Below are positions 9,259-55,810 of a DNA stretch of 64,000 nucleotides, one piece after another; the first letter of the stretch is position 1; every line of letters begins with the position of its first letter. Source of the stretch: Verrucomicrobiaceae bacterium (GTDB lineage Bacteria > Verrucomicrobiota > Verrucomicrobiia > Opitutales > Intestinicryptomonadaceae); NCBI GenBank assembly GCA_015061955.1, contig SUVO01000001.1, positions 2,233 through 66,232 of the forward strand. The letters are read 5' to 3'. The notes below the pieces were generated by a model that was given only the letters and a program-made list of their open reading frames with translations, did no database searches and was not told where the DNA came from. Both the position numbers and the translations under genes were made by a program.

Positions 9259-10371
9259 ATGAAAATAAAATCATTTATAATTGGGGCGTTGTCGTTTGTA
9301 GTTGCCTCAACATCGTTTGCACGCGATGTTTGGACAGCCGAAGAAGCAAATGCGTGGTTTGCAAAACAACCATATAGAGCAGGTGTGAACTATATTCCAG
9401 CATATGCAATTAACGCAATAGAAATTTGGCAGAAAGAAACATTCGATATCAAAGTTATCGAAAAGGAGTTTGCCTTAATGCAGTCGATAGGTTTCAACGC
9501 AATTCGTGTGTTCCTTAATGATTTAGTTGTAAATGACGACCCCAAAGGTTTCCTTGAACGCTTCGAGCTTTTCCTCAAGACAGCCGACAAATACGATATT
9601 GGTGTTATGGTTGTATTCTTCACAAATGGAGGTAGAGACGATGCAAAGCTTGGCAAACAACCAGAGCCAAATGGCACTCACAATTCAGGTTGGAAAAAGC
9701 AACCCTCTTATAAAATCTTGGGCGATAGATCGAAATGGGGACACTTAGAAAAATATGTAAGAACAGTTGTTGGTGCTCACGCCAAAGACCCACGCATTAT
9801 TTGTTGGGATATCTTTAATGAACCTGGGAATATTCGTAGTGAACACATCGTTGGTGGTGGAGCAGGGCTTACAAAAGAACGCATAGAGTATTTGCAAGAT
9901 TGCGTTGTAGAAGTCATAAAATTAAGTTCGCAGTGGGCTCGTTCGTACGATCCAATTCAGCCAATTACATATGGTATGTGGGCTCGCTCTCCAGAGTTCA
10001 AAAAGAAGTTCGATAAAGTTCAGTTTGAAAATAGCGACGTTGTTTCGTATCACTCGTACGGAAATCTTCGTGAACAAATACTTCGTCATAAAGAGCTTAA
10101 AAAATTCAATAAGCCGGTATTCTGTAAAGAATGGATGGGCAGAATTTTGGGTAGTACATATAATCCAATATTGCAGTATCATAAGCAAAATAAAATTTGG
10201 TCGTTTGCATTTGGTTTAGTTGCAGGTAAAATGGAAACATGGCGTCCTTGGCCACATCATGATACTCCAGAAACAAAAGGTATATGGTTCCATGATTTGT
10301 ACAAGGCAGACCACACTCCATATTGCCCAGAAGAAATCGAATACATTAAGAGAGTTTTAAAAGATAAATAA
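9259..10371 (+). CDS. secreted clan GH-A (GH5-like) glycoside hydrolase, paralog 1 of 3
   Basis: Signal peptide followed by TIM-barrel motifs: NAIRVFLND, the WDIFNEPGN (NEP) acid/base and a CKEWMG putative nucleophile. About 65-70% identical to the next two ORFs. Confidence 0.55.
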   Translation: MKIKSFIIGALSFVVASTSFARDVWTAEEANAWFAKQPYRAGVNYIPAYAINAIEIWQKETFDIKVIEKEFALMQSIGFNAIRVFLNDLVVNDDPKGFLERFELFLKTADKYDIGVMVVFFTNGGRDDAKLGKQPEPNGTHNSGWKKQPSYKILGDRSKWGHLEKYVRTVVGAHAKDPRIICWDIFNEPGNIRSEHIVGGGAGLTKERIEYLQDCVVEVIKLSSQWARSYDPIQPITYGMWARSPEFKKKFDKVQFENSDVVSYHSYGNLREQILRHKELKKFNKPVFCKEWMGRILGSTYNPILQYHKQNKIWSFAFGLVAGKMETWRPWPHHDTPETKGIWFHDLYKADHTPYCPEEIEYIKRVLKDK

Positions 10372-10388
10372 AATAGAAAGATAAATAT

Positions 10389-11507
10389 ATGAAAATAAAA
10401 TCACTTATAATAGGAGCATTATCGTTGGTGGTTGCCTCAACCACGTTTGCACGCGATGTTTGGACAGCCGAAGAAGCAAATGCATGGTTTGATAAACAGC
10501 CATATAGAGCAGGGGTGAACTATATTCCAGCATACGCAATTAACGCAATAGAAATTTGGCAGAAAGAAACTTTCAATATCGAAGTTATCGAGAAGGAATT
10601 TGCACTCTTGCAAAAAACAGGTTTCAATGCAATTCGTGTGTTCCTTAATGATTTGGTTGTACACGACGACCCTAAAGGCTTCCTAGAACGCTTTGAGCTT
10701 TTCCTCCAAAAAGCTGATAAATACAACATCGGCGTAATGGTAGTTTTCTTCACAAACGGCGGTAAAGACGACGGGAAGTTAGGTAAACAGCCAGAGCCAG
10801 ATGGCACCCACAATTCAGGTTGGAAAAAACAGCCATCGTACTCAATCTTAGGTGATAAATCTAAATGGGGCTACTTAGAATTTTATGTAAAGACTGTCAT
10901 TAAAGCCCACGCAAAAGACCCACGTATTATTTGTTGGGACATCTTCAATGAACCTGGTAATATCACTAGTGTTCATATAGCAGGCGCTGAGAAAGGTTTA
11001 ATTCAAAAGCGAATTGAATATCTTGAAGATTGTTGCTACGACCTCATCAAAGAAAGTGCAAAGTGGGCTCGTTCTCTCGATCCAATTCAGCCAATTACTT
11101 TTGGTGTTCATCGTTATGACCATACGCCATTGGGTAAAAAGCTTAACGATCTTCAATATGCCGAAAGCGATATTATTTCGTATCACTCGTACGCAAATTT
11201 GTTAATTCAAGCAAATTTTGTAAAAAAGTTGAAGAGATTTAACAAACCATTGATGTGTAAAGAATGGATGGGTCGCAATCGTGGTAGTACGATAAATCCA
11301 ATCTTGGGCTTCCATAAGAAGAATAGAATTTGGTCGTTTATGTTCGGTTTTGTTGCTGGCAAAATAGAAACGTGGCGTCCTTGGAAGTTTGATGAAAATC
11401 CTCTCTCATCTGACGTTTGGTTCCACGATTTATATCATGCCGACCACACTCCATATTGCCCAGAAGAAATTGCTTACATCAAGCGTATTTTACAAGATAA
11501 AAAATGA
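10389..11507 (+). CDS. secreted clan GH-A (GH5-like) glycoside hydrolase, paralog 2 of 3
   Basis: Same architecture as 9259-10371. The first ~75 codons are near-identical at the nucleotide level to paralog 1. Confidence 0.55.
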   Translation: MKIKSLIIGALSLVVASTTFARDVWTAEEANAWFDKQPYRAGVNYIPAYAINAIEIWQKETFNIEVIEKEFALLQKTGFNAIRVFLNDLVVHDDPKGFLERFELFLQKADKYNIGVMVVFFTNGGKDDGKLGKQPEPDGTHNSGWKKQPSYSILGDKSKWGYLEFYVKTVIKAHAKDPRIICWDIFNEPGNITSVHIAGAEKGLIQKRIEYLEDCCYDLIKESAKWARSLDPIQPITFGVHRYDHTPLGKKLNDLQYAESDIISYHSYANLLIQANFVKKLKRFNKPLMCKEWMGRNRGSTINPILGFHKKNRIWSFMFGFVAGKIETWRPWKFDENPLSSDVWFHDLYHADHTPYCPEEIAYIKRILQDKK

Positions 11508-12667
11508 AAATAAAATCATTTTTTTTAACATTCATAGCTTGTATTGTTGCAATATCCTCGTTTGCACGCGATATATGGACACCAGAACAAGCAAATGCGT
11601 GGTACGCAAAACAGCCATTTAGAGCTGGTGTAAATTACATTCCATCGTACGCAATAAATACAATCGAAGTTTGGCAGAAAGAAACATTTAAGCTTGATGT
11701 TTTTGAGAAAGAATTTGCATTGATGGAATCAATAGGCTTCAACGCAATTCGTTTGTTCCTCAATGATCTTGTAGTTAATGACGATCCTAAAGGTTTCCTT
11801 GAACGCTTCGAGCAAGTTTTGAAGGCTGCCGATAAGCATGGGATTGGTGTTATGGTCGTATTTTTTACGAACGGAGGTAGAACAGATGGTACGCTTGGAA
11901 AACAACCTGAACCAGATGGAACGCACAATTCAGGTTGGCGTAGACAGCCTGCATATTCTATTCTGCGAGATAAATCGAAGTGGGGACATCTCGAGTTTTA
12001 TGTTAAAACGGTTGTTGGTGCGTATGCAAAAGACCCACGTATTATTTGTTGGGATGTTTTCAATGAACCAGGTAATATAAAAAGCGATCATATTGTAGGA
12101 GGTGGAAAAGGTTTGACAGAAGCAGATATGGAACATCTGCGTCGTTGTAGCCTCGATTTGGTCAGAGAAAGTGCCAAATGGACGCTTTCGTTTGATCCAA
12201 TTCAACCTATTACGTATTGTTTGTGGTCTCGTACACCGAAGGGCTTTGAGAAAGTTCAGATTGAAAATAGCGATATTCTTTCGTTCCATTCCTATGGTGG
12301 CTTAGGTCAACAAGTTCAACGTTATAAAAAACTGAAGAAGCATAATAGACCTGTTTTATGTACGGAATGGTTGGGGCGTTCTACAGGTAGTACGTTTAAT
12401 CCGATTTTAGAATTCCATAAAGACAATAATATATGGTCGTTTGCTTTTGGCTTTGTTGCTGGAAAAATGGAAACGTGGCGTAATTGGCCAGCTATGGACG
12501 ATTCGGAAATTAGAAGCATATGGTTCCACGATTTGTATCGTGCCGACCATACTCCATATTGCCCAGAAGAAATTGCTTACATAAAGCGAATTTTGAAGGG
12601 CGAAAACGCATGCAAAACTCCTTCTAAAAAGAAAAATAAACCACGCAAAGTCGGTAAATACTTCTAA
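11504..12667 (+). CDS. secreted clan GH-A (GH5-like) glycoside hydrolase, paralog 3 of 3, with a basic C-terminal tail
   Basis: Same motifs (WDVFNEPGN, CTEWLGR). Its start overlaps the paralog 2 stop in an ATGA junction. It ends in a Lys/Arg-rich tail (KTPSKKKNKPRKVGKYF). Confidence 0.55.
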   Translation: MKIKSFFLTFIACIVAISSFARDIWTPEQANAWYAKQPFRAGVNYIPSYAINTIEVWQKETFKLDVFEKEFALMESIGFNAIRLFLNDLVVNDDPKGFLERFEQVLKAADKHGIGVMVVFFTNGGRTDGTLGKQPEPDGTHNSGWRRQPAYSILRDKSKWGHLEFYVKTVVGAYAKDPRIICWDVFNEPGNIKSDHIVGGGKGLTEADMEHLRRCSLDLVRESAKWTLSFDPIQPITYCLWSRTPKGFEKVQIENSDILSFHSYGGLGQQVQRYKKLKKHNRPVLCTEWLGRSTGSTFNPILEFHKDNNIWSFAFGFVAGKMETWRNWPAMDDSEIRSIWFHDLYRADHTPYCPEEIAYIKRILKGENACKTPSKKKNKPRKVGKYF

Positions 12668-12686: not shown

Positions 12687-12716
12687 AAGGCACTCTAAAT
12701 TGAGTGCCTTTTTTGT
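12687..12716 (+). terminator. rho-independent terminator after the glycoside hydrolase triplet
   Basis: aaggcactc, loop taaatt, gagtgcctt, then TTTTTT. Confidence 0.6.
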
Positions 12717-12736
12717 AAAAAAATGTAATTTTTTGC

Positions 12737-12766
12737 TTGACAAAGATTATTAGGGGGGGGTAGCAT
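12737..12766 (+). promoter_or_regulatory. putative promoter of the PEP-CTERM gene with a G8 homopolymer in the spacer
   Basis: TTGACA (12737-12742), an 18-nt spacer that contains GGGGGGGG (12753-12760), then TAGCAT (12761-12766). It lies about 30 nt upstream of the ATG at 12795. Confidence 0.35.
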
Positions 12767-12794
12767 TTGCCAACTAATTTAATAAAGATATATT

Positions 12795-13976
12795 ATGAAA
12801 AAAATTCTTGCATTAGTTTGTGCAACAGCACTATTTACATCGGCATTCGCTTTAAATGTCAGCGAAGATAAAACTATTGTTAATGGTACAGATACCATCA
12901 ACTTTACAGCACCAAATGTTACCCTTACTATTACTGGTAAATTTGATAAGTTGTGGTATTCGCCACGTGCAAATTTTGGTGATGATTATGTATATACCGA
13001 AGGTGACAAAGTTACAGTAAAGTTGGAATATGGCGCATCTCTTGTATTGGATGCTTCTCAAGGGGGCTTGTTTGGTGGTGATTCAGTTTCTACAAGTAAA
13101 GTTGATATGCATATTACTGGTGGTGGTACAATATCTACAACTCTCGAATCTATTACAACTACAAATAATAGAGGGAAACTCTACTTAGACGCATTTACCG
13201 ATTTTACTAATGCCACATATAACATTGGGTCTGCAACACAACCCACAAATCTTACATTATCAAATGCGTTGGTAGTTAACAAACTTACACTTTCAAAAGG
13301 TTCAGTTTTAACAATGTCTTCCGATGATGATTCTTCGGCAGATATTTCTGTTTTAGGTTCTTCATCAACAATCAATGGGAATTTTGTTCAAACTGCAGGT
13401 AGATACGAGGCATTAAATACAACAACAGTTGTAACTGGTACTCTTGATTTGGCTGTTTCAAAAGGTTTTGTATCACGTTGGTTAACTATTGGTAATGGTT
13501 CTACAATTATTATTCGTGCCAATAATGCAATCATGCAGAGCGAAACAGCATATCGTGTTTTTGGTATGTCTAAAGATGCAGTATCAACATTGAAACTTTA
13601 TGCCGATCAACAGTTCGCTGATTTGTGGTTTGATAATGCTAATACTACTGGAACTTTGAATGCTTATACAAATGGCAATGCGCTTACTTTTACTGGTATA
13701 AATTCAACAGGTACTCTCAATATTTTTATTGAAGAAGATTTTTCGTGGGAAAATGATAAAATCCACTTTACAAATGCAACAGTAGAGAGAGTTGTATCAA
13801 TCTTGGGTACAATTACCATTGGTGATACTGTTATTGATAAATCGTTTTGGGATATTGTAAGCGACGGTAATAAAGGTGTATATGTAAACTTGACTCAAGT
13901 TCCAGAGCCAGCCGAATGGGCTCTCATCTTCGGAGCGATAGCACTCGGCTTCATCGCCTATCGTCGCAGAAAGTAA
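12795..13976 (+). CDS. PEP-CTERM sorting-domain surface protein (Thr/Ser/Asn-rich)
   Basis: Signal peptide, then a low-complexity T/S/N/G-rich body likely forming a beta-helix or beta-solenoid. The C-terminus is VPEPAEW-ALIFGAIALGFIAY-RRRK: a canonical PEP motif, TM helix and basic cluster. Confidence 0.7.
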   Translation: MKKILALVCATALFTSAFALNVSEDKTIVNGTDTINFTAPNVTLTITGKFDKLWYSPRANFGDDYVYTEGDKVTVKLEYGASLVLDASQGGLFGGDSVSTSKVDMHITGGGTISTTLESITTTNNRGKLYLDAFTDFTNATYNIGSATQPTNLTLSNALVVNKLTLSKGSVLTMSSDDDSSADISVLGSSSTINGNFVQTAGRYEALNTTTVVTGTLDLAVSKGFVSRWLTIGNGSTIIIRANNAIMQSETAYRVFGMSKDAVSTLKLYADQQFADLWFDNANTTGTLNAYTNGNALTFTGINSTGTLNIFIEEDFSWENDKIHFTNATVERVVSILGTITIGDTVIDKSFWDIVSDGNKGVYVNLTQVPEPAEWALIFGAIALGFIAYRRRK

Positions 13977-14760
13977 AGCAAAACCGTGAGGAGCTTGCTT
14001 TAGTGGTGGTGGTTTTTACTAATAATGAATAAATGCGTTTCTTTAGAAACGCATTTTTTTTATAAATATAACCACCACCAAAGCAAGCAGTTTGATTATT
14101 ATTCGGTTTTATTTCGGACTTACGTACATAGTACGCTACGCCTCATAAAACGCGAATTCTAATGCAAACCTCACGATTTTGTACTTGCAACACGAACCTT
14201 ATTCTAAATCTTAAAACGTGCGAGAGCGCGTTTTCTTTGATGATGAGTTTTAATTTACACTATAAGGAACTTCGATGAAGTGCCTTTTTTTATTAAATAA
14301 ACTCATCAAAGAAAACACTTTACCCTCCATTTTGGTTTTAGCTTCGACTGCAGTGCGTAGCACAGCAACGCTCGCTAAAACGCAAAAGCATCGGGACAAT
14401 CTCGCACGTTTAAAACGTGCGAGGACGGTGTCTCGATTGCGAAAAATATTTATATAGAGATAAGAGCATTCCATTTGGAATGCTCTTTTTGTATAAGATC
14501 GCAATCGAGGCACCTCACAGCTTATGACGCACTTTTGCATCGACTCACGACCAAAGGTCGCTCACGCTCGCAAAAGCGACGTCCTAAGCACGTGCCTCGC
14601 ACGTTTTACTTCTTGCAACCTATGTTGGTTCTAATCTTATGGCTGAATTTTTCTAATAAAAAGTAGAGCCACATGCGAAGCATTGGCGACGGTGCCCAAC
14701 ATATAAAAACACGTTTTACTTCTTGTAACCTATGTTGGTTCTAATGTGTACTATTTTGTA
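13977..14760. repeat. intergenic mosaic of dispersed repeat modules (A, B, A', C, C-partial) at a convergent junction
   Basis: Module A (14213-14316), module B (14323-14411), module A' (14412-14510), module C (14529-14635) and a partial C (14709-14745). Each recurs at 23509-24032 and/or 55283-55810. Confidence 0.7.
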
Positions 14761-14867
14761 AGAGTATAGTGAAGTAATTTTCATTAATTTATAACCATAC
14801 AAATGCTCTATAAACAAAAAAATGCGTATAAAACGCATTTTTTTGGTAAGTTATATAAGTTATATGT

Positions 14868-18557: not shown

Positions 18558-21500
18558 TTGAAAGGACTGTTTATGAAAAAAATCTTTTTTACATTATTTG
18601 TTGCATTTGCTACATCGCTTTTTGCAACACAAAGTAATGACATAAAAAGCATTGCTGATAAATTATATTCAAAGAAAGACACGTTTTTAGATACGGTCCT
18701 TCAAACCCGTTCAAATTATGCGTCGTGGTTGAAAGCGCAACCCGACGCAAACGCAAATTTGAAATTTGGCGATTGGTATGTATCGCAAGCGTTGGAACGT
18801 TATCGTAAAAATGCTTTAAAGTTTGCTAATCCACAAGAAAATGGTATCGATTTAAAAGCCATTTATGGCAGAGAACCTCTTTGGCGTAAGTATGATATCA
18901 AAGATGGAACATTATTCCCATTGTGTTCTACAAATCATCGTTTGTTGCAAACTTGTATAGCTTATGTGGCTCGTGAAATTACTGCCGATGCCGATACTAA
19001 ATTTTCTTTTACAGTTGGTGCTAGAACAAGTAATGTTATAGATGTATTGCTAAATGGTAAATTTTTGAAAACTATCAAAACTGGCGATGCACAATCGTTT
19101 GAAGTCCCACTAAAAAAGGGTAAAAATATTCTTTCGTTTACTATAAAATATTTGGGTAGAATGAATGAAGATGCATTCTACTTTGTGCCATATACTGATC
19201 CAGCAGTAGAACTTACTGCAAAATTGAGAAAAGATTTCCCAACTTTTTATAACGCCTTAACTTCAATGCGTTATTATTATGCCGAAACTCCAGCTTTGTT
19301 GCCTTTCGATTGGTTTGTTGCCAAAGATAATTCGGTTTCGCACAAAGATGTAATTCAGGGTATGATTGAACATTCGCTATTTTCGGCTGGTAAGTTGGAA
19401 GAACGTTTCAAGAAAATTAAAGACGATACATCTGAAAATGCGTCGGTTGAACGTATAAAGCTTTTGGCAGATGGATTTGCTATCTTGTGTGTAGAGCGCG
19501 AGTTTGGTTATTGCATTAAGAATGTAAGATCTGCAATGGAAGATATCAAAAAAACTTACCCAGATTACGATAAAGACGGAAAACTTTTTGCAGAGCTTGC
19601 CGATTGGGAAAAACGTATGCCAGCTCTCTACAATAGCGTTCTTGAAGATGTAAAATTAAATAAACAATCGTCTTTTGCCGAAGCTAAAAAGTTTAATTCT
19701 TTTGCAACAAAGGCATTGCTTGCAAATCCACTTTTAAAGCAGTATCCACAGTGGGTTATGATTAAGCGTGATAAGGGTTCAAGTCGTTTAGGATTGCCAC
19801 AAAATTGGCAAGGTAATTCTACCTTAGCATGTAATCCTTGGTCTTCTAATAATAAGAGACAACCGAAAGTTTGTGCAACTTATAAAGATGAAATTTACAA
19901 GTTCGATATCACAAAACCACAAGAAAAACAGTTGTTGTTTAAGCCTGCAAAAAACAACATCATTTGCGATTTAGATATATCATTCGATGGTAAGAAAATT
20001 TTGTATTCTACCTTAGACGATAAAATGTATTTCCGCATGGACGAACTCGATACCACATCGGGCAAGACAAAAACTATAACGCCAACAATGCACGAGAAAA
20101 TAGATTATTACGATGGTATTTATTTGCCAGATGATCGCATTTTGTTCTGTTCAACTGCGTGTTGGGTGGGTGTTCCTTGTGTGTCGGGTACAGACTCGGT
20201 TGCAAACCTTTATGTAATGGATCCAAATGCAGGTGATGAAAAAGCTGTTGATGAATCTATACGTCAGCTCACTTTCGAGCAAGATGCCGACTGGATGCCT
20301 GTGTTGATGGAAAATGGCAGAATTATGTATACTCGTTGGGAGTACGTTGACAACTCGCACTATTTCTCGCGTATTCTAATGCATATGAATCCTGATGGCA
20401 CTGCACAATCGTCGTTGTATGGTTCTGTTAGTTATTGGCCAAATTCGCTCTTTTACGCACGTCAAATTCCGAACGACCCAAATAAATTTGTTGGTATTGT
20501 ATCGGGGCACCATGGCGTAGCTCGCACAGGTGAGCTTCATTTGTTCGACATTTCTAAAGGAACAAAAGAAGAACAGGGCAGAGTACATCAGTATCCTTCG
20601 CATGGTCGTAAATATGTTGCAGAAACTAAAGACGAACTTGTGCGTGGTAAATTCCCTCAGATTATCCATCCGTATCCTCTTTCAGAAAAATATATTGTTG
20701 CATCGGTACGTCATCACTTGGCAAATCGTATTGGTTTTGCAGTTTGTTTGATTGATAAATTTGACAACATAATAACATTGCAATCGTTTGACGATAATCA
20801 TCATGCTTTCGAGCCATTGCCATTGCAAGCTCGCCAAAAGCCTGTTGAAATTGCCGATAAAACAAATCCAGATTTAGATTATGGCCATGTGTTCCTTAAC
20901 GATATTTATCAGGGAGATGGCTTGAAAGATGTACCTCGCGGAACTGTAAAATCTTTGAGAATTTTGGAATACCATTATGCTTATCGCGATATGGGTTCGC
21001 ATGCTGTAATTGGTAATGAAGGCTCGTGGGACGTAAAACGTATTCATGGTACTGTTCCAGTTCTTGAAGATGGTTCGGCTATGTTCAAAGTTCCAGCAAA
21101 TCGTCCACTTGCACTTCAACCTTTAGACAAAGATGGTAAGGCATTAGCTTTAATGCGTACATGGTTTACTGTAATGCCTGGTGAAGTTCAAAGTTGTGTA
21201 GGTTGCCACGAAGGACAAGGTATGTCGCCAACTTCAAAGCCTGCATTGGCTTCTCGTAAGGCTCCAACAAAAATTAAACCATTTGTTGCTGGTGTGCGTG
21301 GTTATTCGTTCCATAGAGATGTTCAACCTGTTCTCGATAAATATTGCGTAGGTTGTCATAATGGTGGAAATGAAAAATTACCAAACTTTAAGCGTGGCGT
21401 ACGGGGTTATGCACACTTCCCTAAAGCATACTTAGACTTGGCTAAATTTGTGCGTCGCTCTGGTCCAGAATGTAATCAGAATATGCTTACACCTATGGAA

Positions 21501-22811
21501 TTTAATGCCGACACAAGCGAGCTTATTCATATTTTGAAAAAAGGTCATAAAGGAGTAAAGCTTGATGATCAATCTATGAAAATCCTCATTACATGGATTG
21601 ATATGAACGTCCCATGTTTTGGTACTTGGAAAGAAATAAAAGCAGATATTCCACACAATGGCGATGTAATGCGCAGAAAGTACCTTGCTAAATATGCAAA
21701 TCGTCATGAAGACCAAGATGCAATTACATACGATGGTGGTGTTCAAGAATTTGTTGCACCTGCTCAAGCTAAGAAGCATCCACAGAAAAACCTTAAGGCT
21801 GATAATTTCCCATTCGATAGTGCTACAGCTAAGAAAATGATTGAAAACACAGCTGTAAAAGCTGAAGGCTTTACCGGATTATTTGGTGCTAAGAAAAAAT
21901 TACCATCCGAAATTGAATGCGATGTTGATGGCGTGAAAATGCGTTTTGTACTCGTGCCAGCTGGTAGTTTTGTAATGGGTTCAAATCGTGGTTATTACGA
22001 TGAAGGTCCAGCAAAGATTGTACGTGTTGAAAAACCTTTCTATATGAGTCAGTTTGAAGTGTCGAATTTGCAGTACGCTAAGTTCGATGCCTCGCACAAC
22101 TCTGGATATCACGATAGACAATGGAAAGACCATGTAAATCGTGGCTACATTGCAAACAATCCAAATCAACCAGTTGTTCGTGTAAACTGGAATCAGGCAA
22201 ACGCATATGCAAGATGGTTGTCAGAAAAGGTTGGTGTTAAAGTTTCGTTACCTACCGAAAAACAATGGGAATGGGCTGCACGTGCTGGTACATCGGGCGA
22301 CTTCTGGTTTGGTAAACTCGGTAAAAATTATGGCGATTGCGAAAATTTAGCCGACTTTACTATTCGCAATTTTGCTGTTAATGGGGTAAATCCTAAACCT
22401 CGTGCCGACGAAAGCCCTCTAAACGCTTATACTCCACGCGACGACTTTGCTAACGACGGTCAGCTGGTAGGTTGTGATGTAGGTATGTTTAAACCTAACG
22501 CTTTCGGTTTGTACGATATGCTTGGTAATGTTTCAGAATGGACTGCCGACGATTTCAGCGAAACTCTTTTCGGCAAAAAACTTCAAGACAAAAAAGCAGT
22601 TCGCGGTGGTTCGTGGCGCGATAGAGCTAAACGCAGTAGAGTTACAATGCGTCGCGACTATTACTCTTGGCAGAAAGTTTACAATGTAGGTATTCGCCTC
22701 GTTATTGACGATGTTGAAACTGCAGCAAAAACTTTCGAAACTGCTAAAAAACTCCCAGAATATATCGAACGCGACATTTCTGTGAAAGTCGATAACGTTC
22801 CACACGATTAA
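18558..22811 (+). CDS. large secreted multidomain protein with PSCyt-like CxxCH motifs and a C-terminal FGE-sulfatase-like domain
   Basis: 1417 aa with a signal peptide. Two CxxCH motifs (CVGCHEG at nt 21195-21209; PVLDKYCVGCHNGG at nt 21345-21359) sit in a Planctomycete-cytochrome-c-like context. The C-terminal ~290 aa match the FGE-sulfatase fold (NWNQANAYARWL, YDMLGNVSEWT, RGGSWRD). TTG start at 18558 with an aggagagg RBS; the ATG at 18573 is an alternative. Confidence 0.6.
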   Translation: MKGLFMKKIFFTLFVAFATSLFATQSNDIKSIADKLYSKKDTFLDTVLQTRSNYASWLKAQPDANANLKFGDWYVSQALERYRKNALKFANPQENGIDLKAIYGREPLWRKYDIKDGTLFPLCSTNHRLLQTCIAYVAREITADADTKFSFTVGARTSNVIDVLLNGKFLKTIKTGDAQSFEVPLKKGKNILSFTIKYLGRMNEDAFYFVPYTDPAVELTAKLRKDFPTFYNALTSMRYYYAETPALLPFDWFVAKDNSVSHKDVIQGMIEHSLFSAGKLEERFKKIKDDTSENASVERIKLLADGFAILCVEREFGYCIKNVRSAMEDIKKTYPDYDKDGKLFAELADWEKRMPALYNSVLEDVKLNKQSSFAEAKKFNSFATKALLANPLLKQYPQWVMIKRDKGSSRLGLPQNWQGNSTLACNPWSSNNKRQPKVCATYKDEIYKFDITKPQEKQLLFKPAKNNIICDLDISFDGKKILYSTLDDKMYFRMDELDTTSGKTKTITPTMHEKIDYYDGIYLPDDRILFCSTACWVGVPCVSGTDSVANLYVMDPNAGDEKAVDESIRQLTFEQDADWMPVLMENGRIMYTRWEYVDNSHYFSRILMHMNPDGTAQSSLYGSVSYWPNSLFYARQIPNDPNKFVGIVSGHHGVARTGELHLFDISKGTKEEQGRVHQYPSHGRKYVAETKDELVRGKFPQIIHPYPLSEKYIVASVRHHLANRIGFAVCLIDKFDNIITLQSFDDNHHAFEPLPLQARQKPVEIADKTNPDLDYGHVFLNDIYQGDGLKDVPRGTVKSLRILEYHYAYRDMGSHAVIGNEGSWDVKRIHGTVPVLEDGSAMFKVPANRPLALQPLDKDGKALALMRTWFTVMPGEVQSCVGCHEGQGMSPTSKPALASRKAPTKIKPFVAGVRGYSFHRDVQPVLDKYCVGCHNGGNEKLPNFKRGVRGYAHFPKAYLDLAKFVRRSGPECNQNMLTPMEFNADTSELIHILKKGHKGVKLDDQSMKILITWIDMNVPCFGTWKEIKADIPHNGDVMRRKYLAKYANRHEDQDAITYDGGVQEFVAPAQAKKHPQKNLKADNFPFDSATAKKMIENTAVKAEGFTGLFGAKKKLPSEIECDVDGVKMRFVLVPAGSFVMGSNRGYYDEGPAKIVRVEKPFYMSQFEVSNLQYAKFDASHNSGYHDRQWKDHVNRGYIANNPNQPVVRVNWNQANAYARWLSEKVGVKVSLPTEKQWEWAARAGTSGDFWFGKLGKNYGDCENLADFTIRNFAVNGVNPKPRADESPLNAYTPRDDFANDGQLVGCDVGMFKPNAFGLYDMLGNVSEWTADDFSETLFGKKLQDKKAVRGGSWRDRAKRSRVTMRRDYYSWQKVYNVGIRLVIDDVETAAKTFETAKKLPEYIERDISVKVDNVPHD

Positions 22812-22835: not shown

Positions 22836-23510
22836 ATGAAAAAATTACTTGCAACTATTATATCAATCGTAACACTATTGTTTCTTGGTGCATGTTCTTC
22901 ATGCCCAAAAGGCGAATGTTGCTTTAAATCTCAACCAAAATTAACAAAAGATATGTTTTACAAAGATGGTAAATTCGATCAAGATGCTGCCAAGCAAGCA
23001 TACTTCGATATGATGGAAAAACTCGGTTATCCAATCAGCGATAATCTTCGCAAAAATATGTGGGTAACAGACTTCGCTTTAGGCGATTTTCCTAACGTAG
23101 GTATGGCTGGTATATTTTGGGCTCATGAAAACAAAAATGGCGTTTTTGGTCACGAAATTATCTTATTGCCTAACCAAATGCTCGTTGAACACTGGCACGT
23201 TGCCGGCTTAGGTTTGCCTGCTAAAAACGAATGCTGGCAGGCTCGTGCAGGTAAAACTTACTGCTTTGGGGAAGAGGGCGAAGATGCTTCTAAATATCCA
23301 AACGTAAAAGTTCCAGAAAGCCAGAAGAAATTTATTACTGTAAATAAAGTTGCATGTGCTGATGCTAAAGAAGGTAATGTTGTATGGCTCAATCGCTTAG
23401 AAGCACGTCATTATCAGATTGCTGGTCCAGAAGGTGCAGTTGTAACTGAATATGGTGCATTCCACAGCAACGACAACAATCGCTTCACCAACCCAAAGGT
23501 CGGCTTCTAA
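22836..23510 (+). CDS. hypothetical lipoprotein (224 aa)
   Basis: Lipobox LGACSS after the signal peptide. A His-rich block (HENKNGVFGHEIILLPNQMLVEHWH) hints at a metal-binding or cupin-like fold, but no family could be confirmed. Confidence 0.35.
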   Translation: MKKLLATIISIVTLLFLGACSSCPKGECCFKSQPKLTKDMFYKDGKFDQDAAKQAYFDMMEKLGYPISDNLRKNMWVTDFALGDFPNVGMAGIFWAHENKNGVFGHEIILLPNQMLVEHWHVAGLGLPAKNECWQARAGKTYCFGEEGEDASKYPNVKVPESQKKFITVNKVACADAKEGNVVWLNRLEARHYQIAGPEGAVVTEYGAFHSNDNNRFTNPKVGF

Positions 23511-24032
23511 AACGTGCGAGAGCGCGTTTTCTTTGATGATGAGTTTTTATTTACACTATAAGGCACTTCGTTGAAGTGCCTTTTTTTATTAAATAAACTC
23601 ATCAAAGAAAACGCTTTCGGCTGTTATTTGGTTTCGTATCGCCTCACGTACATAGTACGCTACGGCTCACAAAACACAAATTCCAGCTCGAATCTCGCAC
23701 GTTTTACTTCTTCCAACACATGTCGGTTCTAAACTGATTTTATTTAACCACATTCTCTTTGATGATGAGTTTTTATTTACACTATAAGGCACTTTGATGA
23801 AGTGCCTTTTTTATTAAATAAACTCATCAAATAAAACGCTTTGCCCTCCATTTTGGTTTTAGCTTCGACTGCAGTGCATAGCACAGCAATGCTCGCTAAA
23901 ACGCAAAAGCATCGGGACAATCTCGCACGTTTTTTTATTTCCGTTCCTAAGTTTATCCTAATCCGATTTAGTTAGGCAAAGAAGCTATTGCGAAGCAATC
24001 TTCGCCACTTCTCAACATACAAAAACACGTTT
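23509..24032. repeat. intergenic mosaic of repeat modules (A, E, C-tail, A, B, F) at a convergent junction
   Basis: Module A at 23509-23613 and again at 23753-23838. Module B at 23844-23931. Module F at 23932-24032, shared with 55684-55775. The E and C-tail segments at 23614-23735 are shared with 14120-14165 and 14600-14635. Confidence 0.7.
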
Positions 24033-26244: not shown

Positions 26245-28403
26245 TTGCATTTGTCTGTTATAAAAATACTTTTCATGCACATGGTTAGATTATTGTTTTT
26301 ATTATTCAAGGTTAATCTTGTTTGTTTTTTTGCTACATATTCTTTTGCAACAGCTCAATATACAAATATATTAACTGAAGACTTTGAAAATGGTGGTGGT
26401 AATTTTATAAAATTACTGCAATCTTCAAAATTTCTCAGAGTAGGAAATGAGCATGCTATATCAGGGAAATCATCGTTGATATTAGATTCTACCCAAAGAG
26501 CTGGAGAGTGGTTTTTGTATGCAAATTTTGGTAGAGGGGTAGTAGAAAAAGGCTCCGTTTATGAGGTATCGTTTAAATACGATTTAAAAGTTAGCCAAGC
26601 CCAATCGGCAGATTGTTATTTTGCAATAGCGTCTCCCGAAAAAAAGTTTTATGCAAGAACATGTTTTGCAGTAGCCGAAGGTCAAAAAGATAATGTAAAG
26701 TTTATATTTGTATTACCAGCCGATGCAAAAGAGCCATCTTTTAGAATATTTTCACGCAATCCGTGTCTGTTAGTTATCGACGACTTGCAAATAAAAAAAT
26801 GCAACATAAATATAGATTCATGGATATTCAAAGATGGAGCTTTTATCGGTATGCGTAGAACTCCAATTCACCATAATATGCTCGATTTATCTAATATGGC
26901 ATACTTTTTACCACGCGAAAAGTTCATGCCTTTTATCGATAGATATGGTCAGTATAAACACTCAAATTGGGATTGTAAAATAACTGGCAACGACGCATTT
27001 AAAATATCAATAGAAAAAGAGCAAAAATATAACCAACAAACTTGTGATATTGAAAATAGAGATACTTTAGGAGGCCTTGCAAATTCGTCGTCAAGCTCGC
27101 AAAAATCAGATGGCTTTACAACTTGCAAGGTAGACGGTAAATGGTATTTGCGAACTCCTGAAGGCAATTTATTTTGGTCTGTTGGTATAACGTGTGTAGG
27201 TATGTTTTCTTCTACTCCTATAAATAATAGGGAAGAGTATTTTGAAGAAATCGATAAGCGTTATCTAACTGATGGTCGTGGTTATAAACCTGGAACTTAT
27301 TATTACAATAAACCCGTAAAAAATTATCAGATTATTAAGAAGAATATTGTTGAAAAATACGGAGAAAACGCAGTTGAAAATTATCCACAAATTGTAGGTA
27401 ATAGAATGCGTAAGTGGGGGATAAATACTTGTGGTGCATGGAGCTCAGGCGATGTAATGCGTTCTTCTGGAGTCCCATTTACAGCAATAGCATCAAGTGG
27501 AGGCATACAGAAGTTAAAAACGAAGAAAAAATGTTTGCTTTATGGGGAAATATAGCCGACTACTTTTCACCAAATTTTGCTAAGCAAACAGAAACTAACG
27601 TAGCTAAAATAAAAGATTTATTAGAACATAAAAATTGTATAGGTGCATTTGTTGATAACGAATTGTCTTGGCAAATGAAAGCTGGTATTACAGGTTTATC
27701 GGTATTGAGTTGTCCACCAGAACAACCAGCAAAAATGGTTTTCAAAAATATGCTTGAAAATAAGTATCACGACATTTCAGCACTCAACAATGTGTGGAAA
27801 AGTAAATATCAATCGTGGGACGATTTTCTTAAAACTACAAATTTTGAACCTAAATTTGTAAATGCAAAGTCAGATATTTTAGAATTTGAAGAAGCTTTTT
27901 ATGCAAATTATTTCAAAGTTTGTCGCGATGCCGTAAAAAAAGTGTGTCCTAAGGCATTGTATTTAGGATGTCGCTTTGCCTCGAGAAACCCCTTAGTTGA
28001 GCGTGTAGCTTTCGATTATTGCGATGTTGTAAGCTACAATGCTTACCGTAGAGATACAACGTCGGTAAAATTTCCAAAAAATAGAAAAGATAAACCTGTT
28101 ATAATAGGGGAGTTTCATATTTGTAGAACTGATAAAGGCTCGCCATATGGAGGCTTGTTAGAAGTAAGAAATGCAAAACTTTCAGCCGAAGCTTATTATA
28201 AATATATGAAATCGGCAGCGGAAAATCCTGCAATAGTTGGTGCCCATTGGTTTCAATGGTTTGATATGGCCATGACTGGTAGAGCCGATGGTGCGAATGC
28301 TTCGTGTGGATTTGTAAGTGTTGTTGATGAACCAGATTACACTTTAATTGAGGCATCTCGAAAATTTGCCGAAGATATTTATAAAATAAGAATGGCAAAA
28401 TAG
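26245..28403 (+). pseudogene. large secreted glycoside hydrolase gene interrupted by a single-nucleotide frameshift
   Basis: Two overlapping ORFs: 26245-27555 in frame 1 and 27414-28403 in frame 0. Each carries a plausible protein sequence only on its own side of about nt 27500-27531. The switch maps to the A-tracts at 27516-27520 and 27526-27531. N-terminal beta-sandwich (CBM-like) region and C-terminal TIM-barrel region. Confidence 0.5.
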
Positions 28404-48200: not shown

Positions 48201-49298
48201 TTAACGAACTGATAAAAATAATTCGCGCATTATAGCTTCATCGTTATTCGGACGCGTTATCAAATTCTCAAAAGCTTTAGTCAAATTCATCTGAATATCT
48301 ATAAGTTGCTTTAGTGTAAATTTAGCAGCAATAGGGGCAAGCTTTGAGCCTGCATACCATTCGTTTTGAGAAAATAAATTGTACGAACTTTTTTTATCGG
48401 CACCTTCAAAATATTTGCCTAAAATATTTTCGGCGTTTGAAATTGCACCTCTTGGCTGAGGTGAATTTACGCGTGGCAGAATTTTTGTATCCATTAAAGT
48501 TCTCAACTGAATAAGTAGTGAGTTTTGCTTTTGTATAACTGTTATTATTGGGCGTGCCGACGCGTTTTTATTTGTGAAAAAATATCGGTGCAGTGCTGCC
48601 ATTGCTGTTTCTATATCACCAGAATAAAAAGCGTTCGATATTTCAAAAAAATCGCCTTCGCCAAAAATTGGTACCATATCTATTACATCTTTTTCTGAAA
48701 TAGGACGTTCAAAATTTACATATGTAGCAAGCTTTTTTAACTCTTGAAGCGCCATACGCGAATTATTTGCAACAATGGCAGATATTGTTTCTGGAACACC
48801 TCGCTCAAGTTCTATGTTTAATTTCTTGGCTTCTATTTTAATTAAATCGCTACATGCGTTTTCTGAATCTTTTGTTTTAAAGTCTTCAAAATTTGATGTT
48901 GAGCTGAAATCCTTAAATATCTTGCTTGTTCGATTTACAGGCGAGGCATTTATTATTACTGTTACGTCGTTTGGCGATAATTCGGAAAGAGTGTTTAGCA
49001 TATGCTTTAATGCTTCGCGAACATCGTCGTTTTTAGATATAGGCGAATCGTTAAGGAAGTTTAGATTACGCGCCCACACTACTTTCTTTCCTCCAAAAAG
49101 AGGTGTTGTAAGTGCTGCCGATACAATTTTATTACACACGTTTAAAGCATCTTCTATTTTGCTTACAGTAGCTTCTATTATCTCAATAGACATATCATCT
49201 AAGACTTCTCTTGAAGCTTCTTCGTATATTTCTCTTGCTCTATTGATAGCAATGAAATCATCGTCTGAGACAATTAAATGTATAACGTGTTCTGACAT
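48201..49298 (-). CDS. holA: DNA polymerase III delta subunit
   Basis: About 365 aa with a helical AAA-like delta architecture and N-terminal conservation. Moderate confidence. Confidence 0.5.
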   Translation of the reverse strand: MSEHVIHLIVSDDDFIAINRAREIYEEASREVLDDMSIEIIEATVSKIEDALNVCNKIVSAALTTPLFGGKKVVWARNLNFLNDSPISKNDDVREALKHMLNTLSELSPNDVTVIINASPVNRTSKIFKDFSSTSNFEDFKTKDSENACSDLIKIEAKKLNIELERGVPETISAIVANNSRMALQELKKLATYVNFERPISEKDVIDMVPIFGEGDFFEISNAFYSGDIETAMAALHRYFFTNKNASARPIITVIQKQNSLLIQLRTLMDTKILPRVNSPQPRGAISNAENILGKYFEGADKKSSYNLFSQNEWYAGSKLAPIAAKFTLKQLIDIQMNLTKAFENLITRPNNDEAIMRELFLSVR

Positions 49299-55283: not shown

Positions 55284-55810
55284 AAAAACGTGTGTGGACG
55301 CACCACGAGGGCAATATTTTTTATTATAATGATGAAAGGCAATTCTTCGGAATTGCCTTTTTTTGTATTAGCTTGCCCTCGTGGTGCTTGTAGCTAAAAA
55401 CGCACTTTTGCATCGACTCACGACCACAGGTCGCTCACGCTCGCAAAAGCACGTTTTTAGCAGACACCACACACGTTTTTTGTTTCTGTTTCTTACGTTG
55501 ATTCTAATCTGAGGGCAATATTTTTTATTATAATGATGAAAGGCAATTCTTAGAATTGCCTTTTTTTGTATTTAAATTCGCAAAGTGGTGCTTGTAGCTA
55601 AAAACGCACTTTTGTATCGACTCACGACCAAAGGTCGCTCACGCTCGCAAAAGCAACGTTCTAAGCACATGTCTCTCACGTTTTTTATTTCCGTTTCTAA
55701 GTTGGTTCTAATTTGATATAGTTAGACAAAGAAGCTATTGCAAAGCAATCTTCGCCATTTCCCAACATATAATAAAAAGTTTGCCCTCGTGGTGCTTGTA
55801 GCTAAAAATG
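55283..55810. repeat. intergenic mosaic of repeat modules (D, C, D, C, F, D-tail) at a convergent junction
   Basis: Module D at 55300-55400 and 55511-55606. Module C at 55402-55508 and 55607-55715. Module F at 55716-55775. D-tail at 55779-55808. A 14-bp inverted repeat aaaaacgtgtgtgg / ccacacacgttttt at 55285-55298 and 55470-55483 brackets the first D+C unit. Confidence 0.7.

Follow-up and report, generated by a model that had tools for sequence, protein, structure and literature searches.

The porA gene of Neisseria meningitidis and the fetA/frpB gene of N. gonorrhoeae have a homopolymer in their promoters (poly-G and poly-C, respectively), between the -35 and -10 hexamers; the gain or loss of one repeat unit alters the spacing and grades transcription (van der Ende 1995; Carson 2000; both as summarised in PMC5320596 and PMC7864442). 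In Treponema pallidum, tp0126 has a poly-G tract in its spacer, with an optimum at 17 nt, the promoters of tprE/G/J/L carry poly-G tracts as well, and in this set of paralogous genes for predicted outer-membrane proteins the tract measures about 7-12 G, varies within and between strains and modulates transcription (PMC7864442). Here we describe a stretch of 64,000 nucleotides from Verrucomicrobiaceae bacterium (GenBank assembly GCA_015061955.1, contig SUVO01000001.1; the whole stretch is called the window below), in which a run of eight G (G8) ends the spacer of a TTGACA/TAGCAT promoter-like pair upstream of a gene for a PEP-CTERM protein. We think that this run is probably a slippage-driven switch of the porA, fetA and tp0126 kind, acting on the gene of a putative surface protein.

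The locus resembles porA and fetA in that a G or C tract is found in the promoter spacer of a gene for an outer-surface protein, a putative one in the present case, with a length that differs between strains. It departs from them in its host (Verrucomicrobiota instead of Pseudomonadota) and in the product (a PEP-CTERM beta-helix instead of a porin or a TonB receptor); moreover, porA is maximal with a 17-nt spacer, whereas the present family has spacers centred on 18-19 nt and a single cassette that would serve a whole set of paralogues. With a poly-G tract in the promoters of several paralogous genes, the tpr/tp0126 set of T. pallidum is the closest parallel to the present family. Poly-G is, however, common in T. 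pallidum, a GC-rich pathogen, whereas we deal here with a gut commensal of 37% G+C, known from metagenomes, in which such tracts are otherwise absent; in addition, the tract of tprL overlaps the -10 instead of altering the spacing.

The preliminary description of this stretch had compared it with the fim promoters of Bordetella. In B. pertussis fim2 and fim3, the length of a poly-C tract sets the ON or OFF state via the distance to the -10, and this tract separates the -10 from the sites of the activator BvgA, in promoters that have no consensus -35. In contrast, the promoter of the window has a perfect and conserved TTGACA, no activator site was identified in it, and nothing suggests that it depends on an activator. 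The comparison holds as far as a promoter homopolymer at a surface gene is concerned, but porA, fetA and tp0126 are the better analogues. Another known system is that of the vlp genes of Mycoplasma hyorhinis, in which each lipoprotein gene has its own poly-A between -35 and -10 and is switched ON and OFF independently, in a combinatorial way; the tract is there a poly-A and not a poly-G, the products are lipoproteins, and the organism has no wall.

Closer in taxonomic terms, the capsule locus cps1 of Akkermansia is controlled by an invertible promoter, or inverton (PMC13343947), and intragenic G8 and C10 runs in capsule genes of Akkermansia have been noted as possible slippage sites (PMC3048395). 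The likeness is that surface structures of gut Verrucomicrobiota are phase-variable; the difference is that these homopolymers are inside coding regions, not in promoter spacers, and that there is no link to PEP-CTERM proteins. Our literature search found no paper tying PEP-CTERM genes or Opitutales to promoter homopolymers. The mechanism itself is known; it appears to be new for Verrucomicrobiota and for PEP-CTERM proteins, and to serve a multigene family.

Length variation and conservation of the G tract

An exact look-up of the protein encoded downstream of the tract retrieved ten independent metagenome contigs (nine from JGI samples and one from an ENA sample), which encode the identical protein; each of them aligns with the window over 1.8-6.1 kb, at 99.7-100% identity, for a total of 30,555 aligned nt. 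These contigs are consensus assemblies, and their samples may be related, for example as serial enrichments of one inoculum. The tract is G8 in eight of them and G9 in the other two (L002 and L004), that is nine G8 copies versus two G9 copies when the window is counted. The G9 consensus sequences come from JGI samples 3300024272 and 3300029705, the G8 ones from 3300032167, 3300031555, 3300023371, 3300018878, 3300024270, 3300024268, 3300018494 and ENA ERZ27248370. Heterogeneity of tract length, which the preliminary description had proposed to look for in read pile-ups or in several isolates or metagenome bins, is seen here between 11 near-identical assembled copies. Tract aside, 10/10 contigs show no difference in the 135 nt that precede the ATG, and both of the only two insertions or deletions (indels) of the whole alignment fall at the tract; in L004, the additional G is the sole difference from the window in 2,845 nt. 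L002 (G9) and L005 (G8) have five downstream single-nucleotide polymorphisms (SNPs) in common, at 14121, 14268, 14274, 14276 and 14317, and L004 (G9) is SNP-identical to the window and to L003, L006, L007 and L010, all of which are G8. Each of the two SNP haplotypes therefore carries both G8 and G9, which implies recurrent length change or recombination; the pattern would fit recurrent slippage in both directions, and recombination could also yield it. Two pattern searches, one with a variable gap at the tract and one with a fixed 39-mer from its downstream side, gave no match in a metagenome contig collection that evidently does not include these samples.

The tract is also found in front of more distant orthologues (Table 1). 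When these upstream regions are aligned, little is invariant beyond the A of the -35, the motif 'GGGGTA' and the GC just past the -10; the rest of the intergenic DNA is unalignable in distant orthologues, and the spacer bases that flank the tract diverge too. Across the family, the -10 takes the forms TAGTAT, TAACAT, TATAAC, TATATC, TAGGCT and CAACAT. A tract of G8-11 that is kept at one position over such divergence while its length changes is the usual signature of what would be a selected contingency repeat. The homopolymer is interrupted in a few lineages: L021 and L022 (44% identity) have TTGCAA and then (GGT)4GGGG TAATTT, about 40-60 nt upstream of the true ATG, and in L027 (1-73) the tract has decayed to GGTGAGGA. 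These may be 'locked' promoters or, in L021/L022, a trinucleotide repeat. The tract is absent from L023 (about 40% identity, GGCGGG only), a metagenome-assembled genome (MAG) assigned to Opitutales in GTDB, which was the one distant homologue recovered when genome contigs were scanned with the family alignment, the species of the window not being among the matching GTDB representatives.

Table 1. G-tract promoters of orthologues (with the protein identity to the window gene product) and of the second, paralogous PEP-CTERM gene
Promoter	Protein identity	-35	Segment before the tract	Tract	-10	Spacer (nt)
Orthologue, L011	88%	TTGACA	ACAAGAATT	G9	TAGTAT	18
Orthologue, L012 and L013	83%	TTGACA	AAAATAATT	G10	TAGCAT	19
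Orthologue, L020 (Opitutales MAG)	74%	TTGACA	AAGATAGTT	G9	TAGCAT	18
Orthologue, L015	63%	off contig	...AATTA	G10	TATATC	
Orthologue, L017 and L018	56%	TTGACA	ATTTGTC	G8	TAGGCT	15
Orthologue, L019	51%	TTGACA	AACGGCGT	G11	TATAAC	19
Second gene, L012			AATATAGTTA	G8	TAGCAT	18
Second gene, L011			AAGATAGTTA	G8	TAGTAT	18
Second gene, L005			AAGATTATTA	G9	TAACAT	19

Every fetched locus was scanned for G or C runs of at least 7, and all the G runs of 8 or more, in the window and in about 110 kb of fetched loci (partly redundant), are at PEP-CTERM genes. A second gene of this kind (493 aa), which has only its C-terminal 100 aa in common with the window protein (46% identity over this part), is present directly downstream in L005, L011 and L012, and is absent from the window and from L002. 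In L005, which belongs to the window's own species, the second-gene promoter matches that of the window at each of the 34 nt from AATTTTTTGC up to and including the tract. L024 and L025 correspond to a different chromosomal region of a related genome; their 21.5 kb contain only two G or C runs of at least 7, both G9 and both in TTGACA promoters (spacers of 17 and 18 nt) of PEP-CTERM genes (426 and 500 aa). Finally, an NCBI MAG (L026) has TTGACA-AAGGTATTTA-G8-TAGTAT at a PEP-CTERM gene, and TTTTTTGCTTGACA is common to the window promoter and to the paralogous promoters of L005, L011, L012 and L026. TTGACA is unchanged in 12/12 distinct G-tract promoters whose -35 region is on the contig. If the window promoter is counted as its G8 and its G9 allele, these make 13 variants, with spacers of 15 (n = 1), 17 (n = 1), 18 (n = 7) and 19 nt (n = 4), and the run is G on the coding strand in every one of them.

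One paralogue, P0008 (in L016), has a TTGACA promoter without a tract, together with an in-frame G9 at nt 88-96 of its open reading frame (ORF; L016 3088-3096), which encodes Gly-Gly-Gly and is a candidate for the frameshift-type, classical translational form of the same device. In L005 (about 2395-2850; P0015/P0038/P0039), the G9 allele leaves the frame open through the second-gene promoter. The ORF has been called as 450 aa instead of 427 aa, from a TTG start in the -35 region ('LTKIIRGGVTF...'), because G9 opens this frame, and the longer form is thus an annotation artefact.

A proposed spacer switch and its alternatives

The scenario that we favour, with reasonable though not complete confidence, is the following. 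The G8 would be a hypermutable repeat in the spacer of a sigma-70-type promoter, in which slipped-strand mispairing at replication would add or remove one G. The distance between -35 and -10 would then change (17 nt with G7, 18 with G8 and 19 with G9), with a rotation of one hexamer relative to the other; RNA polymerase would bind better or worse, and transcription would be raised, lowered or turned off, in a heritable yet reversible way and in a fraction of the cells. The anatomy of the region, its conservation, the length polymorphism between near-identical strains and the spread of the tract over the family are direct observations; that slippage is responsible, that this pair is the promoter and that transcription responds to the tract are inferences. 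By the E. coli rule, spacers of 15, 17, 18 and 19 nt would be expected to differ in strength. A slipped-strand switch of spacing had been put forward in the preliminary description, and it is now supported by the G8 and G9 copies, by the orthologue lengths of 8-11 and by the recurrence of the tract in paralogues. Of the shift between 17, 18 and 19 nt announced there, 18 and 19 are seen at the window promoter itself; 17 is seen once, and 15 once, elsewhere in the family. The same cassette (TTTTTTGC-TTGACA, 7-10 nt, G8-11, TAnnAT) would drive several paralogous PEP-CTERM beta-helix genes, so that the bacteria can probably vary their set of adhesin-like surface proteins independently. It is tempting to speculate that 19 nt is a low or OFF state and 18 nt an ON or intermediate one, a weak hint being that the second gene, which has been lost in some strains, has G9 and a 19-nt spacer in L005.

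Several observations weigh against this scenario and should be acknowledged. The polymorphism is seen between consensus assemblies only, in 2/11 copies, and the two members of each of the pairs L012/L013, L017/L018 and L024/L025 agree in length, so that consensus lengths are fairly stable. For the second gene, the read-through ORF 'IIRGGV' likewise points to G9, in at least nine contigs from the species of the window; a cluster look-up for this gene gave G9 read-through forms only, the 427-aa forms being ambiguous between an effect of the gene caller and one of the tract. A G8 is, by itself, statistically unremarkable in 64 kb (dinucleotide shuffles gave a mean of 0.10 G8/C8 runs per window, with at least one in 10/100 shuffles), and its significance comes from its position and from its conservation in orthologues and paralogues. 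The sigma-70 consensus may not be that of the host phylum, the sole check being that TTGACA is enriched in the intergenic DNA of the window (9/20 occurrences versus 11% intergenic, p = 1.5e-4), which supports the promoter assignment. Finally, the spacers are not centred on the canonical 17 nt and the ON length cannot be read off from them; the other TTGACA promoters of the window were too few and too ambiguous to tell an optimum of 17 nt from one of 18.

The alternative that survives best, although we consider it unlikely, is that of a static promoter element, in which the conserved G tract sets promoter strength (as a rigid G-rich spacer, as the binding site of a regulator, or because its G at -14 imitates an extended -10) and is no stochastic switch, the different lengths being the result of slow drift between lineages. 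This hypothesis would account for the fact that the whole spacer is held tightly at 18-19 nt despite the variation in both of its parts, i.e. the number of G (8-11) and the length of the preceding segment (7-10 nt) (the variance of the sum is 1.08, versus 1.64 if the two parts were independent). It is also in line with the agreement in length of most pairs of independent assemblies of one strain, and with the fact that one species has the same non-G part of the spacer (AAGATTATTA) in the promoters of two paralogues, as a pure spacer would not usually show. On the other hand, G8 and G9 are both found on otherwise identical sequences and on two SNP backgrounds, and the G run is not indispensable for the promoter, since there are lineages with an interrupted tract (L021/L022 and L027). 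Furthermore, the intragenic G9 of P0008 makes sense only as a slippage device.

A technical artefact seems to us less probable still. One would have to assume that G8 and G9 result from a homopolymer miscall by sequencing or assembly, the tract being invariant within the strain. It is true that homopolymers are error-prone, that G-rich stretches are hard for Illumina chemistry and that only consensus sequences are compared here. Three contigs, moreover, have an end within about 20 nt of the tract (the first base of L015 is 5 nt before G10, that of L019 3 nt ahead of the -35 and that of L014 21 nt upstream of the ATG), as would fit assembly-graph breaks at a site that is either heterogeneous in length or hard to sequence. 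However, the same alignments contain no other indel and no length change in 43 observations of A or T runs of at least 7 (14 of them of at least 8), which argues against a generic homopolymer error; the assemblies do not scatter, with eight on G8 and two on G9; and orthologues have clearly different lengths in the 8-11 range, each reproduced wherever two independent samples are available (L012 = L013, L017 = L018, L024 = L025). The conservation of the tract across species is, in any case, independent of the miscall issue.

We give slightly less credit again to a neutral hotspot, i.e. a tract that slips without meaningful effect on expression and is associated with PEP-CTERM genes as part of a duplicated ancestral cassette: the promoters are evidently homologous (TTTTTTGCTTGACA ... 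TAnCATTTGC), so that their distribution could reflect inheritance, but an unselected G8-11 should decay by substitution at 37% G+C, whereas it persists down to 51% protein identity, and a change of 1-2 nt in spacing alters expression in the porA, fetA and tp0126 promoters.

If the spacer switch is extended from one promoter to the whole family, one arrives at a 'phasome' of uncultured herbivore-gut Verrucomicrobiota (Opitutales or Verrucomicrobiaceae according to the MAG records). Each genome would have at least four paralogous genes for adhesin-like PEP-CTERM beta-helix proteins, and every one of these genes would be switched separately by a poly-G tract, located in the promoter spacer for most of them and in the 5' coding region for one. 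We lean towards this idea, with distinctly less assurance than for the switch itself. If it is true, exosortase-sorted surface proteins would be varied in a combinatorial way, and this would be the first case of contingency loci linked to PEP-CTERM cargo, as well as the first homopolymer switch located in a promoter spacer within the Planctomycetes-Verrucomicrobia-Chlamydiae (PVC) superphylum.

Gram-negative bacteria of the environment and of the gut have PEP-CTERM proteins in abundance and, to our knowledge, almost nothing is known of their function. A whole family under stochastic ON/OFF or graded control would probably be exposed at the cell surface and, if this is the case, under fluctuating selection, for instance by phages, protozoan grazing, host antibody or attachment to plant particles. 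Contingency loci made of simple sequence repeats are described mainly in host-adapted pathogens (Neisseria, Haemophilus, Campylobacter, Helicobacter and Treponema), and the present finding would extend them to a commensal phylum; in Verrucomicrobiota, we know only of invertons and epigenetic switches as demonstrated so far. From a more practical point of view, the tract causes annotation errors, gene callers extending the ORF through the promoter when the frame is open, and it may cause contig breaks; its length could also act as a cheap marker of strain state in metagenomes.

The promoter region and the PEP-CTERM gene

The features of the region are listed in Table 2. The TTGACA-N18-TAGCAT pair has 10/12 matches in the consensus scan, and direct reading shows that the preliminary description was exact in the position of both hexamers, of the spacer and of the run. 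It was wrong in calling this pair the only promoter-like sequence upstream of the gene: TTGCCA-16-TATATT and TTGCCA-18-TATTAT (12767-12796) also reach 10/12. We dismiss these two because they abut or overlap the ATG, so that the transcript would omit the start codon. Promoter-like matches are indeed cheap in this A/T-rich region (7 found versus 2.6 expected). The G8, for its part, is the sole G or C run of at least 7 across the window, whose G+C content is 37.5%.

Table 2. Features around the G tract and the PEP-CTERM gene, in window coordinates
Feature	Position	Strand	Basis or detail
Predicted intrinsic terminator of the upstream GH5-like gene	12687-12716	+	stem-loop 12687-12710 plus T run
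A/T-rich stretch AAAAAAATGTAATTTTTTGC, abutting the -35 on its 5' side	12717-12736	+	direct reading; belongs to the conserved cassette
-35 hexamer TTGACA, perfect consensus	12737-12742	+	direct reading, consensus scan
Promoter spacer of 18 nt, AAGATTATTAGGGGGGGG	12743-12760	+	direct reading; AAGATTATTA then G8
G8 homopolymer, proposed slippage-prone element	12753-12760	+	last eight bases of the spacer
-10 hexamer TAGCAT	12761-12766	+	consensus scan; key T1, A2, A5 and T6 present
Invariant GC, 3-4 nt past the -10, beside the predicted start of transcription	12769-12770	+	alignment columns G102 and C103
PEP-CTERM gene, 393 aa	12795-13976	+	signal-peptide-like N terminus; C-terminal sorting signal VPEPAEWALIFGAIALGFIAYRRRK
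Predicted intrinsic terminator after the PEP-CTERM gene	14031-14056 plus T run (to 14064)	+	11-bp stem with 4 GC pairs

The ATG of the PEP-CTERM gene, at 12795, is 78 nt from the upstream terminator, with the promoter pair mid-way, and transcription is predicted to start at about 12772-12774. The stretch AAAAAAATGTAATTTTTTGC is UP-element-like and might play the role of such an element. The upstream terminator, as predicted, insulates the gene from the upstream operon; its hairpin is kept, with an altered sequence, in the orthologous loci L011, L012 and L020. Since the gene is flanked by its own promoter region and its own terminator, it can be regarded as a self-contained monocistronic unit.

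Three other interpretations of the region were considered and rejected. A stop codon at 12783-12785 closes the frame upstream of the ATG, so that the tract does not belong to the coding sequence of the window gene; the Bacteroidetes-type -7 motif TAnnTTTG does not fit TAGCATTTG, the register being off by one; and a lone G8 run is unable to form a G-quadruplex. An Rfam scan of the whole window gave no match, and no known RNA element accounts for the region.

The N terminus of the protein (MKKILALVCATALFTSAFA) is signal-peptide-like on direct reading, and residues 369-393, VPEPAEWALIFGAIALGFIAYRRRK, match TIGR02595 with 19.6 bits, for a curated cut-off of 16; this PEP-CTERM motif is invariant in 10 homologues. 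An identical protein is labelled 'PEP-CTERM sorting domain-containing protein [Verrucomicrobiaceae bacterium]' at NCBI, where close relatives are labelled Opitutales. The Thr/Ser/Asn-rich composition noted earlier for this protein is borne out by the figures (T 13.2%, S 8.4% and N 7.4%, with 12 N-x-S/T sequons). The structure model predicts a beta-helix, closest to the passengers of autotransporter adhesins. The search for the C-terminal barrel of an autotransporter was negative, both as a Pfam autotransporter domain and in the structure model, and the protein ends as a single PEP-CTERM helix after residue ~368, so that we do not consider it an autotransporter but a protein with a passenger-like fold only. 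An adhesin-like role with exposure at the surface is suggested by this model, and an adhesin-like beta-helix would belong to the class of proteins that are usually phase-varied. No exosortase domain was found by domain scans among the 44 larger ORFs of the window. In the L020 orthologue (MAG GCA_017623955.1), a TAG at ~1241-1243 replaces the TGG codon of Trp318, which is invariant in the family, and the protein is cut to 316 aa; this suggests a pseudogene or a dispensable gene.

Neighbouring genes and other observations

The gene upstream of the promoter (11504-12667) is the third of three tandem GH5-like paralogues (window 9259-12667) of 370, 372 and 387 aa, which are 71-74% identical to each other in nt sequence; the pairing of GH5-like and PEP-CTERM genes is syntenic in L012, L013 and L020. 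Elsewhere, the window encodes LpxK, LptD, enolase, GH92, GH43, a rhamnosidase and an arabinofuranosidase and it is an ordinary chromosomal segment of a Gram-negative bacterium that degrades glycans.

The slot downstream of the PEP-CTERM gene is variable between strains (window 13977-14867; L005 1805-2852; L012 4183-6150; L001 4183-7182), and in L001 it contains a citrate synthase gene in place of the DUF4886 gene. In the window, this slot includes a gene-free segment (14055-14745) with dispersed repeats, of which copies 75-84% identical are present in the gaps 23508-23932 and 55357-55712, without a match in Rfam; it also has several hairpins, and the two copies of a 36-nt direct repeat are at 14600 and 14710.

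Another promoter-like site with a homopolymer in its spacer occurs on the minus strand (49333-49299), where TTGACA is followed by the A9-containing spacer TTGTATCATAAAAAAAAAG and TATAGA; it adjoins the 5' side of a DNA polymerase III delta-like gene (48201-49298). TTGACA is also found at several places only 23-35 nt ahead of a start codon (15793 and 59282), and such short distances hint at leaderless messenger RNAs, or at messengers with a very short leader.

Two further observations concern more remote genes. The ORFs 26245-27555 (CBM_4_9) and 27414-28403 (GH42-like) overlap by about 140 nt, with no long homopolymer at their junction, and may represent a frameshifted or split glycosidase gene. 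Finally, the gene at 18558-22811 encodes a protein of 1417 aa with an unusual architecture, in which a hydrazine-synthase-alpha-like middle domain (PF18582) is combined with a C-terminal FGE-sulfatase domain.

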